64,000 nucleotides of DNA from an uncultured Verrucomicrobiota bacterium (GTDB lineage Bacteria; Verrucomicrobiota; Kiritimatiellia; JAAZAB01). The stretch is taken from NCBI GenBank assembly GCA_964475165.1, contig CAYYVN010000001.1, positions 31,518-95,517 of the forward strand, read 5' to 3'. The number at the start of each line of letters is the position of its first letter. The first letter of the stretch is position 1. The position numbers are program-made. Below, piece by piece: positions 51,001 through 63,000 of the stretch.

Positions 51001-54000
51001 GTTATGGTTATAGCGATTGACGCCGGCCGCTTTGAGCTGGCGCGCCTGGGGCAGAGTCAAGAGGCCCAGCGAGACGCAGACTTGAATGGGCACTTCTTTT
51101 TTCAGGGCATGTACTATTTGACAGATATGACTGATATCGCGTGCGCTGGGATTGCGACCGCTGGAGACGATACAATAGCGGAAGGCGCCCAGGCGCTGAG
51201 CTTGGCGCGCGCCTTCAATGATATCCGCTGGCGATTGCCAGGGATAAGGAGGCGTATGGCTGTGGCTGGCGGCCGACTGACTGCAATAAGCGCAATCTTC
51301 GCTGCAGTTACCCTGGCGCGCATTACGGATCAGGTGCAGGCGCACCCCGCGCTTGAAATAGCGCAGCCGCAGGCGGAAAGCGGCATCGAGCACCGCCAGC
51401 AAGGCATCATCTTTCGACTCCAGAATGGCCAAGGCTTCCCGGGGCGTGATCTGACCGCCCCGCAGGACGCGCTGGCTTAATTGTTGCCAATTCATTTTTT
51501 ATATTCTCCCTCTATCCCGCCGTTTCCGACTGTGCGCCAGGGATGTGCCTTGAATTTCAGCTACCGCTTTCGGGAAAAATCATAGCCTCGGCAAACTGGG
51601 CCTGAAAATCCGCTGCTTGCGATAACTCAACATGGCGGGTTTGGCGGGCGATGATTTCGGCCTGGTGCCGGGCGGCGGTATTCAATAGCACCCACTTGGC
51701 GCCGCTGAGCGCCGCATTGCCCAAGCTGGTAATCCTTTTATGCTCAATATCCGGCGGCAATAAACCGATGCGCTGGGCATGTTGGTGGCGGATAAAATTG
51801 CCGAAGCCGCCGGAGAGCAAAACGGCGCGGATAGCGCGAGGATTGATGCGCGCCTGCTTGAGGAGCAAGGTGATACCGGCTCGAATGGCGCCGGCCCCCA
51901 GTTGCACCTCACGGATATCGCGTTGGGTGAGCAGGAGCGGCTCCCGTTCGCGCTGGCACACCAGAAATTCTGGCGCGCCGCTCCGGTTCAAGCGCACGCG
52001 CTGCGCCAGCGCCACGGGCAGTCGGGCCGGCAAGGCATCCGGGGCCAATAGTTGGCCGGCGGGCGTGAGGATACCATGGTTCAATAATGCTGCTATGAGA
52101 TCAATCAAGCCACTGCCGCAGATGCCCTTGGGCGGCAGCTGGCCGATGACTTCCAGATGTAGATCATCATTCAGAACCACCTTTTCGATAGCGCCCGGCT
52201 CAGCGCGCATCCCGCAACTGAGGCGCGCGCCCTCGAAGACCGGGCCAGCGGCGGTGGATGCGCACCAGAGCCGGCCATCATGGGCCAGCACGATTTCGCC
52301 ATTGGTGCCCAGATCCACCAGCAAGAGGGGTGTTTCGCGTTCCAAGATGCGGCTCGCTAGCATACTGGCGACGGTATCCCCACCGACGAAGCCACCGATG
52401 ATTGGCAAGACATAGGCGCGCCCGCCCGGGGCGATTGATAAACCCATTTGCTGGGCCGCGCCGGCCAGACCTGCCGCCTGCACCGGCGCAAAGGGCAGCT
52501 CGCCCAGAAAACGTGAATCAATGCCGCAGAGGATCTGCTGCATGGCAGTGTTGCCGGCCAGGACCACTTCATAGATCTGCTGGCATGTGACGGCGGCTTG
52601 GTCGCAGAGATGGCTGAGCATATCGGTCAAGGCCTCGAGCAGCACGCGGCGCAGATCTGCCAGGCCCTCGGGCTGCAGCGTGGCATGGCGGATACGGGAT
52701 AAAACATCATCGCCATATTGTATTTGCGGATTCGGCCTGGCCACGAGCGCTTTTTCGGCGCCCGTGCGCAGATCGAGCAAAGTGCCTACCAGCGTTGTGG
52801 TGCCGATATCAAAAGCGGCACCGTAGAGCTGCTTGCTGGTATCACCGGCTTCGAAGGCGATCAGGTGTTGCGCGGCCAGCACGGCTGTGCCGGTGAAGTT
52901 TTCGGCACGCAAGCGGGCGGGCAGTTGACGCAGGAGCTCAAGATCCATTTGGAAAGGACCGAGGGCCTCCCGCAGGCGCAAGCAGTCGGCTCGCGCATCA
53001 TCCGGGGAAGGCGCGGGCATTTGCACAAAAAATTTGCGGATGGCAGGGATCAGTTCTATTTTTCTGCTGCTGGTAGCTGCCAGGATCTGCATTTGATCGG
53101 TCAGCAGAGCACTGGCGGGCACCTGGAGCTTCATATCCTGCTGCACGAGTGTTTGACAGGCCAAGCGCCAGCCGGCCTGCAGTTCCGGGCTGGTGAAGGC
53201 GGCTTGTTCGGCGGCAGTGGGCGGTGCGGCGCCGGCTGTGATTTGCACGCGGCATTTGGCGCAAGTCCCGGCGCCGCCGCAGTGAGCTTCAATAATCAAA
53301 CCAGCCTTGGCGGCGGCTTCGAGCAGGGCACTGCCGGGCAGCACACTGCTCATGCGTCCCTGGGATTCAAAGATAACCTTGAATTGTTTGGTTTGCATCA
53401 TTCCGCCTCGCCCTGGGTTTGCAGCAAGTAATTGGCGATGGCACGGTAGAGGGTGCTGACCGCCAGGATCGCGCAATGGCGCCCGGCCAGCGGCTGGCAT
53501 TCTCCGGAGCGGATAAGTTCGCCGGCGCTGATGGCGAGCGCCGCGCTGATTGATTTTCCTTGCGCGCGCCGCGCCACGGCTTGTCCGCAAGCGCGCGTAT
53601 TGGCACAGCCTTCGGCGTAATACGAGGCCTTGAGGATGGTATCGTTTTGGATCTCAAGGTAGATTTCCATCGTATCTCCGCACGGCCCACGAATCGCGCC
53701 GGCGCAGGTGGGCGCGGACATGCGACCATAAAAGGCATCTGTTGAAGGAGGCTGTGGGATGGTTTTCATAAAACGCCAACACCGTAGAAACGATCTTTCA
53801 TCCAGCGATCATATTCTTCCCATTCCTTCTGACGGTCAATCAATAAAGCGAGCCGTTTTCCGATGACCTTGGCCAGCAGTTCATCATTGGCGAGCAAGGG
53901 GCGCTTGGGGATGTGGCCCTTGGCCAGCAGCTCGTAGGCTTCATTGATCACCTGAAATTTTTCAGCGTTACCGCCGCGCATATCAGGATGATATCGTTTG

Positions 54001-60000: not shown

Positions 60001-63000
60001 GCCTGCCCCAACCGGCCCGGTGGCCCCGGCGCCCTCGCCCGCGTCCCCAGCATCCTGGCATCGCGAAGGCTGGCTGGCGCAGGGTCCCCGCCAAAAAGGC
60101 TGCGATAACCTCCTCTTGGTCGCCTGCAATAAAAGGCATAATTCGCATGCCTCGGGCGCTCAATAAGCTAGCCATGGGGCTGGAGATAGCACCGCAAATC
60201 AATACTTGCGGTCGTAATTTCTCCAATTGGGCCACCTGCTGCCAATAGCCAGCGCCCGGCAAGCGTTCCTCGCGCCGGGCGCTTATTTTAGCATCCAGCA
60301 CCTCCAACACGAGTAACTGGCGCGCCACATCGCACACAGGCGATATTCTGCCCTGCCAGACTGTCATCGCCACGCGCATCACACCCTCTTTAAATAGCAG
60401 TAAGCGTGCCAAGTTCTGGCATTAAGCGCTTCTGCTTGTGGATCCTCTTCATTATCGGTTATTTACAGCAATCAAGTCTTCTTTCGCCCTATTTTATGGA
60501 GCAAAACTGCTACTCTATTTCGCCTATATAGTCTTTATAATGCAACCCTATCTGAGCGCCGGGCGCGGCCGTCGACCGCGGGCAGGGCGATGCCCAGGGC
60601 TTTGATTTTACGGAAGAGGGTGCTTTTATGCATGCCCAGGGAGCGGGCCGCGGCCAGGCGGTTGAAATGATGGCGTTCGAGGGCCTGACGAATGGCCTGG
60701 GCTTCGGTGGCCTGTCTGATGGCGCGCAGGTGGCCGCCGGCTGTCGCCGCGCTGGGAGTGCGTCCCGTGAATTCTTCGGGCAGATGGCGTGGTTCAATAT
60801 ATTTTTCCTGGCATAAGACGAAGGCATGTTCGATGATATTTTCCAATTCTCTGACATTGCCGGGATAATCATGCCCCATCAATAAAGCCATGCCCGCCGG
60901 ACTAACGCCCGCAATGGCTTTGGCCTGCATCCGATTGAAACGCGCGATGAAATGCTCCACCAGCAGCGGGATATCTTCTTTGCGCTTACGCAGGGGCGGC
61001 AAAACGATCCGCATTACATTAATGCGATAGAAGAGATCCTGGCGGAAGGTGCCCTTTTTCACCAGAGCTTCCAGGTTGCGGTGGGTCGCCGCTATGACGC
61101 GCACATTGGCTTTGAGGGCCTGCGTGCCGCCCAGGGGTTCATAGATTCGATCCTGCAGGACCCTCAGCAAACGCACTTGGAGCGCGGCGCTGATTTCACC
61201 GATTTCATCCAAGAGCAGCGTACCACCTTCGGCCATGGCAAAGCGTCCCGGTTTATCCTTATGCGCGCCAGTAAAGGCGCCGGCTTTATAGCCGAACAGT
61301 TCCGATTCCAGCAGAGTTTCCGGCAGCGCGCCGCAGTTGAGCGCGATGAAAGGTCCCTGGTGGCAGGCGCTTTGGGAGTGTATGGCGCGGGCCAGCAATT
61401 CTTTGCCGGTACCGGTTTCGCCCTCCAGCAGGATGGTGCTGGTACTGGCGGCGACTTGGGGCAGAATATCGAAGAGGCGGCGCATGGCAGGGCTGCGGCT
61501 GACGAGATCGCCAATCTCAAAGCGGCCTTGCAACTCCTTGCGTAGCTCCTCCACCAAGCTCAGATCACGAAAAGTTTCCGCTCCGCCGACGACGCGCTGC
61601 CGGCTATCCCTCAGAACGGCTGTAGAAATGCTGATGGGAATACGGCGTCCCTCAGCATTGACGATGAAAGCCGATTTTCCGACGATGGCCTTACCTGTTT
61701 TCAGGGTTTTACTCAGAGCACAGTTGGCCTCGCACATGCTGCAACGGAGCACCTCGGAACAGGGTCGGCCGAGGGCTTCCCTGCGCGATGTGCCGGTGAT
61801 TTTTTCCGCGGCACGATTGAAGAAGGTGATCCGCCAGTTGCGATCCACCGTAAAGACGCCATCTGAGATGCTATCTAGAATGGCATTGGCCGCCGCCGGT
61901 GGGGCTGGTTTGCTTGAGTGTTTTTTGCTTTTCATGGAAGGGATCTGCCCTTGATCGGTGCTGTGCCAGTTTCCGTGCGTTCGCTGCCAAGCGAGCGCTT
62001 GGTCATGCTAACCATGCTGAAAACCATGCCCATTGTCAATCTTCTCCTTTGAGCGTGGTGTTCAGGAAGGCCGGCCGGCTGGTATTCAATAAAAAATCTT
62101 TTATTGAAAAAGATCCCGTCTACAATCAATGCTGATCCAAGCCTTAAAAATCATGACCACCAATGATACTATAGCGGCCATTGCCACGGCGCCGGGCGAG
62201 GCTGGCATTGCCATTATCCGGGTATCCGGGCCGGCTAGCTTAGCGATTGCTGACCAGTTGTTTATCGGCGCGCCGCCCCCTTCCCGCCGACCAGCTGGCA
62301 GTTGCCTGCATGGCTGGCTCAGGAGCACGGCTCAGACCCTGGATGAAATCCTGCTCTTGAGCATGCCTGCTCCGCGCAGCTATACGCGCGAAGATGTGGT
62401 GGAATTTCAATGCCATGGCGGGATGGTATCGGCCCGGCGTATTTTACAAGCTGTCCTGAAACTAGGTGCCCGCCTGGCTGAGCCGGGAGAATTCACGCGG
62501 CGCGCTTTTTTGAACGGTCGCTTGGATCTGGTGCAGGCTGAAGCCGTGCTGGATTTGATTCGAGCACGCACGGATCGCGCCGCCGCAGCCGCGGTGGAGC
62601 AGCTTGAAGGAAGGTTAAGCTCTTCATTCAACGATATTTATGCAAGCCTAAGCGAGCTTAATGCCGATCTGGAGGTCATGCTTGATTTTTCGGAAGACGA
62701 TCTCACGCCTGAGGTTATGCCCGGCGCTTGCAGCAGCCTGCGCTCGATACATGCTCGAATACAGCAGCTTTTAGAGACCTGGCAGGAAGGTCATCTTTTG
62801 CGCGAAGGTGCCTTAGTGGTCATCTCCGGCAAGCCAAATGTGGGCAAATCCACCTTGCTGAATGGGCTCTTGGGCAAAGAACGGGCCATTGTTTCCCCGG
62901 CACCGGGAACCACCAGGGATATCATCGAAGAAAACCTGGTTTTGGATTGCATCCCACTGCGCTTGGTGGATACGGCCGGCCTGCGTTTAACAGATTGTGA

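Follow-up and report, generated by a model that had tools for sequence, protein, structure and literature searches.

A probable orange-protein (ORP) gene cluster with a recurrent set of additional genes in an uncultured Kiritimatiellia-type bacterium

Does a long gene string in an uncultured member of the Verrucomicrobiota encode an ORP system, and do the many genes that the Desulfovibrio locus lacks belong to it or merely lie beside it? The window, i.e. the whole 64-kb stretch of DNA that was analysed, holds a co-directional minus-strand string at 47234-61935 (about 14.7 kb), with the gene of an OrpR-like activator first and that of MrpORP last. We consider it fairly probable (roughly 0.6) that this string is the ORP gene cluster of an anaerobe of the Lentisphaerae/Kiritimatiellia type (PVC), and that it encodes a redox-gated system for the assembly and carriage of Fe-S or metal-sulfide clusters. 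All features given with coordinates below lie on the minus strand.

Extent of the string and its ORP core

All genes named in the first-pass annotation were recovered on the minus strand where it had placed them and with the domains it had listed (ORFs, Pfam, NCBIfam). Its end of the string at 51557 was wrong, however, as further genes, for biotin synthase, phosphatidylserine decarboxylase, and CoA-binding and MBL-fold proteins, lead on to MrpORP at 47234. The MrpORP gene had been missed, as had the ATA start of the orange-protein gene. Start/stop overlaps of 4 nt couple the MinD, methyltransferase, and thioredoxin genes as well as the J-protein, IscU-like, and RACo-like genes (ORF coordinates), while the largest intergenic gaps measure 128, 101, 100, 88, and 84 nt. 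Co-direction and short gaps suggest a model with one transcription unit, although gaps of up to 128 nt make internal promoters conceivable, and these may exist inside the 47234-61935 string.

The second of two NifX-like genes (59363-59725; PF02579) encodes a 120-aa homologue of the orange protein (Orp8). It is the closest sequence relative here of the D. gigas ORP structure (PDB 2WFB, E=7e-22; MTH1175, E=3.5e-17), and its truncated ORF reaches 41.7 bits against PF02579 (Pfam). This gene has no ATG, GTG, or TTG start; the conserved start position is occupied by ATA (59725-59723), preceded by a Shine-Dalgarno sequence GGGAGG (59732-59737). The same ATA is found in four other assemblies, while relatives have ATG. 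Expression of the gene may be weak, or the gene may have been inactivated recently; ATA instead of ATG speaks for this and counts against our reading of the locus.

The first NifX-like protein (59990-60379) has a divergent PF02579-type fold and scored 22.3 bits in the Pfam search, under the gathering score of 26.3. Nevertheless, the profile of its family aligned with that of the orange-protein family at an hhalign probability of 97.3% (E=2e-11) and matched the NifX-fold proteins TM1816, PH0822, and TM1290 in the PDB, which supports homology to the NifX-fold family. The protein carries the motifs W-x-G-R-I-S-P-V, LICGAIS, and MPGC and a cationic C-terminal tail rich in Gly, Arg, and Trp. The initial description of two NifX/NafY-like PF02579 proteins thus holds for the second, while the first fails the Pfam threshold and is recovered by profile comparison. 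Between the two lies a 74-aa ORF of uncertain status (59755-59979), predicted as a gene in metagenome contigs, with no family match in an NCBIfam-type profile search. It aligns weakly (21-28% identity) with same-position ORFs of five related loci; by position it corresponds to small proteins of relatives in which a DUF5320-like N-terminus is combined with a hydrophobic helix.

A DUF5320 protein follows (58866-59234; PF17253, 80 bits) that begins with MPxGDGTGP, has a region rich in Gly, Arg, and aromatic residues, and ends in a coiled coil. A second protein (DUF5320b, 58540-58764) shares the N-terminal motif of the family and has a Gly/Arg-rich stretch and a zinc-ribbon-like CxxC...CxxC C-terminus. 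Both had been called DUF5320 proteins; the label is confirmed for the first, while the second falls below the threshold (25.1 vs 27 bits against PF17253) and shares only the N-terminal motif. The family of the first occurs in 13/16 PVC loci and 26/34 ORP-centred loci; in PVC loci, that of the second is strongly conserved and its gene immediately precedes that of the radical SAM enzyme.

The fused ATPase (55380-57233; two PF01656 and four Fer4 matches) consists of two MinD/CbiA P-loop modules with 31% identity between the halves; a 2x[4Fe-4S] ferredoxin domain is inserted in each module, giving four CxxCxxCxxxC motifs. This double architecture is that published for Orp3/Orp4 (PMC6345978), and 11 related loci carry the fused form while the remaining ones have separate genes. 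At the far end of the string, MrpORP (Orp9, 47234-48436), in which an Mrp/NBP35 P-loop ATPase is fused to a NifX-like domain, exceeds the equivalog cut-off of NF041136 (530 vs 450 bits). Directly 5' of it lies a conserved partner, the MBL-fold protein (48449-49285; PF00753); the pair is present in 7/16 PVC loci, 9/34 ORP-centred loci, and Lentisphaerae BinA184. On the 3' side of MrpORP, a sigma-70-like site and a fluoride riboswitch open a crcB unit.

A putatively redox-gated sigma-54 activator and its candidate sites

The OrpR-like enhancer-binding protein (60535-61935) combines PAS, AAA+ (GAFTGA; PF00158, 227 bits), and HTH_8 domains. Its PAS domain contains C59, E61, C68, and C72 (Cys-x-Glu-x6-Cys-x3-Cys) plus an additional C65. 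The spacing is that of the [4Fe-4S] ligands of DvH OrpR (C52, D/E54, C61, and C65; PMC8359166), and these residues are invariant in 23/24 aligned orthologues adjoining such clusters.

Downstream of the activator gene, the single sequence in the 64-kb window that matches TGGCAC-N5-YTGCW exactly (TGGCACGCTTACTGCT, 60396-60411; 0.35 expected by chance) bears out the proposed TGGCAC-N5-CTGC element as a candidate sigma-54 (-24/-12) promoter, TGGCACgcttaCTGCt. About 20 related loci have the same element before the start of the first NifX-like gene, mostly 30-50 nt upstream. Here its 3' end lies 16 nt before the ATG, an unusually short distance that we count against our reading. Candidate OrpR sites, recognized by sequence similarity as imperfect palindromes, occupy 60481-60550: TAGGGTTGCATTATAAAGACTA (60529-60550) overlaps the orpR stop codon, TAGAGTAGCAGTTTTGCTCCA follows at 60497-60517, and a third element of this type resembles TAGGGCG...AAGACT (60481-60493). 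Relatives have (T)AGAGTCGCA-N4-TGCGACTC in two copies at the equivalent position, and the OrpR site of DvH is GGGCGYRTTTTGCGCCC (PMC8359166). The -24/-12 element and the upstream palindromes are conserved in position across about 20 related loci. No IHF consensus with up to one mismatch was found between these sites and the promoter, which also counts against our reading.

The 2WFB match, the MrpORP equivalog, the Orp3/Orp4 architecture, the OrpR ligand spacing, and the conserved promoter together sustain the assignment to the ORP complex.

Additional genes and their recurrence

The published D. vulgaris locus is organized as orp3-4-5 / orpR / orp7-8-9 (PMC8359166, PMC6345978); as the first-pass annotation indicated, it lacks the radical SAM, methyltransferase, IscU-like, J-domain, thioredoxin, and RACo-like genes, all of which are present here. 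The radical SAM enzyme (57511-58455) has a CX3CX2C motif at C31/C35/C38 and an ArsR-like C-terminal winged helix with an invariant RRxC motif (C266; consensus RRRPCT), and contains no auxiliary-cluster cysteines. The small ORF reported after it (86 aa, 57248-57508) does exist as an open frame but is doubtful as a gene: it has no family match in Pfam or NCBIfam and no homologue outside its own species, and its GC at codon position 2 is atypical (0.61 vs 0.43-0.55 in most real genes). Two hairpins with T runs in this region are not above chance. Probably it is not a gene, and the region may be a lineage-specific spacer.

The class-I SAM methyltransferase (54577-55383; PF08241, 56 bits) overlaps the ATPase stop by 4 nt and matches the DVU_1556 family weakly (37 bits vs a cut-off of 155). 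Its own stop overlaps, again by 4 nt, the start of a CGPC thioredoxin (54236-54580; TIGR01068, 115.7 bits vs a cut-off of 96.8) whose gene is sporadic across related clusters. The small J-domain protein (53766-54134; PF00226, 45 bits) carries an HPD motif, and its C-terminal region is conserved; in four related loci its orthologues also lie immediately 5' of the IscU-like gene. Overlapping its stop by 4 nt, the IscU-like scaffold (53398-53769; PF01592, 54.6 bits) has C30-G-D, C55, C61, C91, and H98-C99, lacks the LPPVK motif, and stays under every NCBIfam IscU/NifU cut-off. The RACo-like protein (51557-53401), whose start overlaps the IscU-like stop (ATGA), comprises a plant-type [2Fe-2S] ferredoxin domain, a linker, a middle domain, and an ASKHA ATPase (PF00111, PF17650, PF17651, and PF14574 above cut-off). 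It matches PDB 3ZYY over its full length (E=1e-93) and remains under the AcsV equivalog cut-off (406 vs 800, NCBIfam); its gene follows the IscU-like gene in five related loci.

Two sets of loci were compared, 44 genome loci of 12 kb or more centred on the radical SAM gene, 16 of them PVC loci, and 34 metagenome loci centred on the orange-protein gene. At least two ORP families were present in 34/44 radical-SAM-centred loci. The 16 PVC loci contained MinD (16), IscU-like (12), methyltransferase (7), RACo-like (6), and J-protein (5) genes. The order OrpR-NifX1-NifX2-DUF5320a-DUF5320b-rSAM-(MTase)-(DnaJ)-IscU-like-RACo-MinD is a recurring one. In Lentisphaerae BinA184, radical SAM, IscU-like, and methyltransferase genes lie between the NifX genes and MrpORP, the methyltransferase being flanked by the two MinD genes. 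Among the ORP-centred metagenome loci, radical SAM (8/34) and IscU-like (9/34) genes were associated: 6/8 loci with radical SAM had an IscU-like gene vs 3/26 without (p=0.0014). This co-occurrence and the association of both with ORP genes across loci argue against a chance neighbourhood, which we reject, and for a recurrent accessory module, as judged from gene content. The term "expanded" ORP operon is justified because the additional genes recur alongside ORP genes in other genomes. There is also one natural radical SAM-IscU-like fusion (P0037), which lies on a 1.8-kb contig and could stem from misassembly or a frameshift error.

The additional genes are not of equal standing, with radical SAM, IscU-like, and methyltransferase genes frequent and the RACo-like, J-domain, and thioredoxin genes rarer. 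The RACo-like gene was found in 0/34 ORP-centred metagenome loci, which counts against our reading, and J-protein and thioredoxin genes were rare there; these three may therefore be clade-specific add-ons. Related clusters are also flanked by genes of Fe/S homeostasis (Fur, peroxiredoxin, rhodanese fusions, EncFtn-like ferritin).

Three of the genes towards MrpORP are probably lineage-specific passengers. BioB (50515-51495; TIGR00433, 373 bits vs a cut-off of 225) is co-directional; its proximity to ORP clusters is restricted to loci of the PVC/Kiritimatiellia type, where it lies at one flank or the other, and it is probably a passenger or a client. Phosphatidylserine decarboxylase (49725-50426; PF02666, 115 bits) precedes the MBL-MrpORP pair in three other loci, and the CoA_binding_2 (YccU-like) gene (49286-49657; PF13380, 99 bits) occurs in 4/16 PVC loci.

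A proposed assembly and carrier line

A fuller assembly and activation line for an unusual metallocluster, as the first-pass annotation proposed, is a reasonable inference by analogy with known systems. When the redox potential is low and its cluster intact, OrpR would switch on sigma-54 transcription, and Fe-S units would be built on the IscU-like scaffold. The RACo-like protein would spend ATP to supply low-potential electrons, either for reductive cluster coupling or for reduction of the radical SAM cluster, while the J-protein would recruit a chaperone ATPase for release; the triad of J-protein, IscU-like, and RACo-like proteins is analogous to HscB-IscU-HscA/Fdx. The cluster or a partner protein might then be modified by the radical SAM enzyme, alone or together with the methyltransferase.

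Next, the NifX-fold proteins, together with DUF5320 and tail segments that are cationic and rich in Gly and Arg, would hold the anionic metal-sulfide product non-covalently. This step is modelled on ORP, which binds its cluster non-covalently and in which MrpORP passes Fe-S to Orp3/4 (PMC6345978), and on IssA, where thioferrate is held by a NifX-fold domain and a cationic Gly/Arg/aromatic tail; the first NifX-like protein and the DUF5320 proteins share this cationic-tail character. Finally, client proteins would receive clusters from the MinD/ferredoxin ATPases and MrpORP. For the D. vulgaris ORP complex a cell-division phenotype has been reported. The gene content here would point to an ORP-type system equipped with a scaffold, a reductase, and radical chemistry of its own, and the recurrent additional genes offer testable clues to the role of ORP.

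Gene content and extent of the string

A co-directional string of 19 ORFs occupies the minus strand of the window from 61935 to 47234, opening with a PAS-AAA+-HTH_8 sigma-54 activator (60535-61935; PF00158, 227 bits). ORF calling together with Pfam and NCBIfam searches recovered every gene that the first-pass annotation had listed between 61935 and 51557, in the same order and on the same strand. The activator is followed by NifX-like #1 (59990-60379; PF02579, 22.3 bits, under the gathering score of 26.3), a 74-aa ORF with no family match (59755-59979), NifX-like #2 (59363-59725; PF02579, 41.7 bits), a DUF5320 protein (58866-59234; PF17253, 80 bits), a second, DUF5320-like protein with a zinc-ribbon-like end, hereafter DUF5320b (58540-58764; PF17253, 25.1 bits, under 27), a radical SAM enzyme with a winged-helix tail (57511-58455; PF04055) and an 86-aa ORF, again with no family match (57248-57508). 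Next come a 617-aa double MinD/CbiA ATPase with four [4Fe-4S] motifs, whose halves are 31% identical (55380-57233), a class-I methyltransferase (54577-55383; PF08241, 56 bits), a thioredoxin (54236-54580; TIGR01068, above cut-off), a J-domain protein (53766-54134; PF00226, 45 bits), an IscU-like protein (53398-53769; PF01592, 54.6 bits, above cut-off) and a RACo-like protein with four Pfam domains (51557-53401; PDB 3ZYY, E=1e-93). By HMM search, the family assignments proposed for both NifX-like and both DUF5320 proteins hold for NifX-like #2 and the first DUF5320 protein, and NifX-like #1 and DUF5320b score below threshold. In DUF5320b only the N-terminal half matches PF17253, and the motif MPRGDGTGP is common to both DUF5320 proteins.

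The end that had been placed at 51557 proved too early. Past this point the string goes on through BioB (a true equivalog; TIGR00433, 373 bits vs cut-off 225), PSD, a CoA-binding protein and an MBL-fold protein to its last gene, MrpORP (Orp9; 47234-48436; NF041136 equivalog, 530 bits vs cut-off 450). Start and stop codons overlap by 4 nt at MinD/methyltransferase, methyltransferase/thioredoxin, J-protein/IscU-like and IscU-like/RACo-like, the widest gaps within the string are 128, 101, 100, 88 and 84 nt, and terminator-like and sigma-70-like matches in the string stay at chance level. A sigma-70-like site (47055-47083) lies between the MrpORP stop and a fluoride riboswitch (RF01734, 52.7 bits, 46986-47048, minus strand), which directly precedes crcB (46597-46977, minus strand); riboswitch and crcB are a new unit and mark the downstream end of the ORP (orange protein) string.

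The small ORF described between radical SAM and MinD is present and improbable as a real gene, given its atypical GC (0.61 at codon position 2 vs 0.43-0.55 in most neighbouring genes) and the absence of homologues outside its own species. The 86-aa ORF is probably not a gene; its stretch (57248-57508) measures 261 nt, as opposed to ~70 nt at this place in relatives, carries two hairpin and T-run motifs (57371-57386 and 57318-57337) and could be a lineage-specific spacer or attenuator. Between the NifX-like genes, relatives encode 78-aa proteins (L008 at 8375, L009 at 7764, L012 at 7070) whose N-terminus resembles that of DUF5320 (MPGGNGTGP...) and which contain a hydrophobic helix; the 74-aa ORF of the window has the helix alone in common with them (W...ALGS..G..LA.K), at 21-28% identity.

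Promoter, regulator and ORP core

A sigma-54 element had been reported next to the activator gene, and the element TGGCACGCTTACTGCT (60396-60411, minus strand) is indeed the sole exact match to TGGCAC-N5-YTGCW in the 64 kb (0.35 expected), with its position kept in relatives: the same -24/-12 element precedes the first NifX-like gene in ~20 related loci, mostly 30-50 nt from the start. In the window the -12 element (60396) ends only 16 nt 5' of the NifX-like #1 ATG (60379), which implies a very short leader, and the predicted transcript start would fall inside a Shine-Dalgarno-like GAGGG. The only right-strand match in the string at 1 mismatch, a candidate internal promoter at 55645-55660, was rejected, as its -12 GC is missing. 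In relatives the palindrome (A)GAGTCGCA-N4-TGCGACTC (GTCGCA-N4-TGCGAC type) stands twice upstream of the promoter, and the degenerate window versions at 60529-60550 and 60497-60517 are candidate OrpR sites; the published D. vulgaris Hildenborough (DvH) site GGGCGYRTTTTGCGCCC is similar in its CGCA/TGCG core (PMC8359166). The IHF consensus WATCAANNNNTTR was not found at one mismatch or fewer in 60380-60560, and an Rfam scan of the operon found no riboswitch or RNA element within it, the Moco riboswitch included.

Within the activator's PAS domain, C59, E61, C68 and C72 reproduce the spacing of the OrpR [4Fe-4S] residues C52, D/E54, C61 and C65 (PMC8359166), and 23 of 24 aligned orthologues have these four residues without change. 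The window activator is, by its predicted Fe-S signature, of OrpR type, with GAFTGA in place of the DvH GAFTDA. A fourth cysteine, C65 (61741-61743, minus strand), stands between the conserved ones, at a position held by Ala, Ser or Asn in all 23 orthologues with the conserved motif. In L001, an ENA assembly of the same organism, a 1-nt indel splits orpR (6531-7921, corresponding to window ~60535-61935) into calls of 253 and 213 aa; apart from this, the 16.5-kb alignment of L001 with the window contains no mismatch (99.94% identity).

NifX-like #2 finds the D. gigas orange protein (2WFB) as its best PDB match (E=7e-22, residues 2-111 of 117) and MTH1175 as its second best. Comparison of the NifX-like #1 family profile with that of the orange-protein family gives an hhalign probability of 97.3% (E=2e-11), and the former also matches the NifX-fold entries 1O13, 2YX6 and 1RDU (TM1816, PH0822, TM1290), which supports homology of NifX-like #1 to the NifX-fold/orange-protein family despite a PF02579 score below the gathering threshold. 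The published ORP system comprises Orp3, 4, 5, 8, 9 and OrpR (PMC6345978, PMC8359166). Its Orp3/Orp4 counterpart here, matched by architecture only, is one protein with two CbiA/MinD modules and four Fer4 motifs, a fusion also seen in 11 related loci, and NifX-like #1 and DUF5320 are, by position only, candidates for Orp5/Orp7. The locus can be counted as an ORP-type system by virtue of its Orp8 and Orp9 homologues, its Orp3/4 architecture, the signature of OrpR and a sigma-54 promoter, and the ORP assignment of the first-pass annotation stands. The nearest genome loci belong to Kiritimatiellia/Verrucomicrobiota MAGs at ~60% identity, and a protein fragment with 100% identity across 73% of the query has been deposited as 'Lentisphaerae bacterium'.

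The orange-protein gene itself shows an anomaly. At its conserved start lies ATA (59725-59723, minus strand), where 16 relatives have ATG, with a good Shine-Dalgarno, GGGAGG, 6 nt 5' of it (start and Shine-Dalgarno together 59723-59737). The same ATA occurs in four other metagenome assemblies of the organism (L001, L004, L005, L086) and is therefore real, not a sequencing error; either the orange-protein gene uses a start codon that is rare and non-canonical, or it was inactivated very recently. In L001, L004 and L005 the gene is missing from the gene calls.

Like the DvH ORP genes (DVU2103-DVU2109), the string encodes an orange-protein homologue, a second NifX-fold protein, MinD-type ATPase modules with two [4Fe-4S] motifs each, MrpORP and a PAS-AAA+-HTH sigma-54 activator with Cys-x-(D/E)-x6-Cys-x3-Cys, and combines a predicted -24/-12 promoter with palindromic upstream sites. 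It departs from the D. vulgaris model, however, in being a single co-directional string downstream of orpR, whereas two divergent operons flank orpR in DvH; in the fusion of Orp3 and Orp4; in having no IHF consensus site in the interval between upstream activator sites and promoter; and in its embedded accessory genes, namely radical SAM-wHTH, methyltransferase, thioredoxin, J-protein, IscU-like and RACo-like. These extras are absent from the DvH orp operons (PMC8359166, PMC6345978), in agreement with the earlier annotation. Two DUF5320 genes, the ATA start, the short distance of 16 nt from promoter to ATG and the MBL, BioB, PSD and CoA-binding genes between the extras and MrpORP are further differences, as is the PVC host, given that the 2021 OrpR paper described OrpR as confined to Deltaproteobacteria.

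Recurrence of the accessory genes

Whether the extras belong with the ORP genes was addressed by two scans that complement each other. A genome scan centred on the radical SAM gene gave 80 loci, 44 of them at least 12 kb long and used for counts, and in 34 of these 44 at least two ORP-type families share a strand. Across the 16 PVC loci, MinD is always present (16), followed by the orange protein and DUF5320 (13 each), OrpR and the IscU-like protein (12 each), MrpORP (8), methyltransferase and MBL (7 each), RACo-like (6) and J-protein (5). The gene order that recurs reads OrpR-NifX1-NifX2-DUF5320a-DUF5320b-rSAM-(MTase)-(DnaJ)-IscU-like-RACo-MinD. A metagenome scan centred on the orange protein yielded 34 loci of at least 10 kb, in which NifX1 and DUF5320 occur in 26, OrpR and MinD in 25, MrpORP in 19, IscU-like and MBL in 9, radical SAM in 8, methyltransferase in 4, J-protein in 2, thioredoxin in 1 and RACo-like in none. 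Within these 34 loci, the IscU-like gene accompanies radical SAM in 6 of 8 cases and occurs in only 3 of the 26 loci without it (Fisher p=0.0014). The gene-neighbourhood comparison shows the extras recurring with ORP genes in other genomes.

Integration of the extras is supported by two more observations. The independent gene calls of Lentisphaerae ADurb.BinA184 give the order NifX-NifX-DUF5320-rSAM-...-IscU-like-PanD-MinD-MTase-x-MinD-MBL-MrpORP, and after MrpORP, precomputed Pfam annotation identifies Fur, peroxiredoxin, a fusion of MBL with rhodanese, and sulfur-transport proteins (PF04143 Sulf_transp) (L166, 10913-14983). A single database protein (P0037, 423 aa, on an ENA contig of 1763 bp) joins radical SAM-wHTH in frame to an IscU-like domain; it is possibly a Rosetta-stone link or, the contig being short, an assembly or frameshift artefact. 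Among the best 120 matches of the IscU-like protein, no further domain fusions were found. The flanks of L006-L085 hold recurrent genes that are missing from the window string, all assigned by sequence motifs alone: DUF89-like (18 loci), DUF134 (16), PNPOx-like (13), CoA-disulfide reductase-rhodanese (13), peroxiredoxin (9), EncFtn-like ferritin (6), a PLP Cys/Met enzyme (6) and TrmO-like (6). In the literature we found no account of such an expanded ORP neighbourhood, the founding 2011 paper lying outside the scope of the search.

These patterns bear on the possibility of a mosaic operon, in which only OrpR, NifX, DUF5320, MinD and MrpORP form the ORP system and the extras, BioB and PSD are co-directional in this lineage by chance, as unrelated genes of housekeeping or other pathways. 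The D. vulgaris complex works without extras in its orp operons (PMC8359166, PMC6345978), RACo-like (0 of 34), J-protein (2 of 34) and thioredoxin (1 of 34) are rare or missing in the orange-protein-centred loci, and BioB, PSD and the CoA-binding protein stand near ORP clusters only in PVC/Kiritimatiellia-type loci, on varying sides. On the other hand, radical SAM, IscU-like and methyltransferase genes are embedded among ORP genes in PVC, Desulfobacterota-like, KSB1 and Planctomycetota loci; the co-occurrence of the first two is significant; the BinA184 methyltransferase sits between its two MinD genes; and in the window MrpORP lies downstream of all extras, while 4-nt overlaps couple ORP with non-ORP genes, e.g. 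MinD with the methyltransferase. A mosaic of unrelated genes therefore seems rather unlikely. We conclude that radical SAM, IscU-like and methyltransferase genes constitute a frequent accessory module of ORP clusters across phyla, that the J-protein/IscU-like/RACo-like triad is a subclade elaboration, and that thioredoxin occurs only sporadically. Kiritimatiellia-type synteny probably carries BioB, PSD and the CoA-binding protein along as passengers, unlike MBL-MrpORP, which is a conserved pair.

Proposed cluster assembly and its alternatives

In the IscU-like protein all three cysteines of IscU are kept along with the His-Cys pair (C30-G-D, C55 and H98-C99), and two further cysteines are present; LPPVK is absent, and the NCBIfam IscU, NifU and SufU equivalogs all score far below cut-off. 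The RACo-like protein has its Fer2, RACo linker, middle and ASKHA C-terminal domains above Pfam cut-off and matches 3ZYY over its full length, and reaches 406 bits against the AcsV equivalog cut-off of 800; no CoFeSP or acetyl-CoA synthase genes lie near, and the gene is coupled to that of the IscU-like protein. Together with the J-protein, these two would resemble HscB-IscU-HscA/Fdx in logic, with a three-cysteine scaffold, an adjacent HPD J-protein and an actin/Hsp70 (ASKHA) superfamily ATPase that carries a [2Fe-2S] ferredoxin domain; the genes of the three are translationally coupled. The analogy to the ISC system is drawn from the parts, and there are differences: the string has no cysteine desulfurase, IscA, HscA or HscB C-terminal domain, the putative scaffold has no LPPVK chaperone-binding motif and the ATPase is of RACo type, not Hsp70. 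Membership of the methyltransferase in the DVU_1556 family was not accepted (37 bits vs cut-off 155).

A second resemblance concerns the cationic segments. At its end NifX-like #1 bears a cationic Gly/Arg/Trp tail, the DUF5320 proteins are free-standing Gly/Arg/aromatic-rich segments, and the orange-protein homologues of seven Desulfobacterota-like relatives (L043, L045, L067, L028, L057, L061, L063) are ~200 aa long with long (GMGR)n tails. In the thioferrate storage protein IssA of Pyrococcus furiosus, an IPR003731 domain is likewise followed by a cationic Gly/Arg/aromatic tail, whose character binds anionic thioferrate, and MTH1175, on which IssA has been modelled, ranks second among the PDB matches of NifX-like #2. 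The tail of NifX-like #1 is short (~22 aa vs 70), and IssA has not been described with MinD, MrpORP or OrpR partners. Taken together, the IscU-like motifs, the RACo-like/J-protein coupling and the cationic segments lead us to favour a model of cluster assembly and carriage, the biochemical steps of which we infer from observed gene content, conservation and motifs. Redox potential would gate transcription through OrpR, clusters would be built on the IscU-like scaffold and the RACo-like protein would reduce them in an ATP-consuming step. Modification by the radical SAM enzyme and the methyltransferase might follow, NifX-fold proteins and cationic segments could hold them, and the MinD/ferredoxin ATPases and MrpORP may deliver them.

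The radical chemistry might instead be directed at protein, with the radical SAM enzyme acting, in the manner of an activase or a RiPP-like maturase, on the Gly-rich DUF5320 proteins or on a different protein of the cluster, rather than on an inorganic cluster, and with the IscU-like and RACo-like proteins merely supplying and reducing its [4Fe-4S] cluster. The enzyme has no auxiliary-cluster cysteines, DUF5320b lies 0.1-0.6 kb upstream of its gene in nearly all PVC loci, and the DUF5320 N-termini are Gly-rich and highly conserved. However, DUF5320 is found in most ORP clusters without radical SAM (26 vs 8 of the 34 orange-protein-centred loci), DUF5320b does not adjoin the radical SAM gene in Desulfobacterota-like loci and a leader/core peptide architecture is not evident, so that we regard modification of a protein, including the subordinate role it gives to the IscU-like and RACo-like proteins, as unlikely.

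The string might also build or detoxify heterometal sulfide clusters containing Mo, W or Cu, with the extras serving that chemistry. The orange protein of D. gigas, the nearest solved relative of NifX-like #2, holds an anionic Mo/Cu cluster, [S2MoS2CuS2MoS2]3-, non-covalently (PMC6345978), and cationic Gly/Arg segments would suit anionic thiometallates. The recurrent neighbours nevertheless point to iron and sulfur (Fur, EncFtn-like ferritin, rhodanese, IscU-like, MrpORP), MrpORP and Orp3/4 are Fe-S proteins (PMC6345978), no Mo, W or Cu transport or cofactor genes were seen in the window string or among the recurrent neighbours, and the Rfam scan found no Moco riboswitch. Thiometallate handling is accordingly quite improbable.

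A more far-reaching variant would see a module of four parts (the radical SAM enzyme with no auxiliary cluster, the separate SAM methyltransferase, the IscU-like scaffold and the ATP-driven RACo-like reductase), together with NifX-fold carriers and NifH/MinD-class ATPases, as a path by which non-diazotrophic anaerobes make a non-canonical Fe-S cofactor without NifB. This cofactor might carry a carbon or methyl modification or have a higher nuclearity; two enzymes that act on a cluster bound to the scaffold would share the methyl transfer and H-abstraction that NifB unites, and the triad of J-protein, IscU-like protein and RACo would do the work of HscB-IscU-HscA/Fdx as an analogue lacking Hsp70. 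Unlike the nitrogenase cofactor line (NifU, NifB, NifX/NafY, NifH), the string has a radical SAM enzyme with no NifB match or K-cluster ligands, a separate class-I methyltransferase, no NifEN/NifDK-like scaffold and no homocitrate synthase. We offer this route as a long shot.

Hardly credible, finally, is a cobalamin-dependent methyl-transfer system of RACo-like protein and methyltransferase merely adjoining the ORP genes: the former is a full-length homologue of the corrinoid reductive activator and a B12-binding radical SAM gene lies at 43429-44997, but the string has no corrinoid-binding protein or MtrH/MT2-type methyltransferase, its methyltransferase is a class-I SAM enzyme, and the RACo-like protein scores below the AcsV cut-off, is translationally coupled to the IscU-like gene and directly follows that gene in five related loci. 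The B12-radical SAM gene, whose best NCBIfam matches (HpnJ, BchE) are all below cut-off, lies on the plus strand, more than 2 kb past the string end and beyond crcB, and was therefore rejected as an unsupported client of the RACo-like protein.

The ORP complex has reportedly been known since 2011 as an anaerobe-specific metalloprotein set under sigma-54/OrpR control. The literature links it with a phenotype in cell division, with a Mo/Cu cluster observed in vitro and with the transfer of Fe-S by MrpORP. Our comparisons show that the system, including the OrpR Fe-S signature, reaches well past the Deltaproteobacteria into PVC bacteria, KSB1 and Planctomycetota. Radical SAM, IscU-like and methyltransferase genes lie physically among those of the system in many lineages, joined in a subclade by a J-protein and a RACo-type ATP-dependent reductase. 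The cluster is rich in cationic Gly/Arg segments that may be of the thioferrate-holding IssA kind, and a role for RACo-type activators outside corrinoid chemistry is suggested. The question of ORP function can thereby be turned into concrete experiments on cluster assembly and modification. The expanded arrangement is no oddity of the window; it is widespread in uncultivated anaerobes and bears on the function of the ORP complex.
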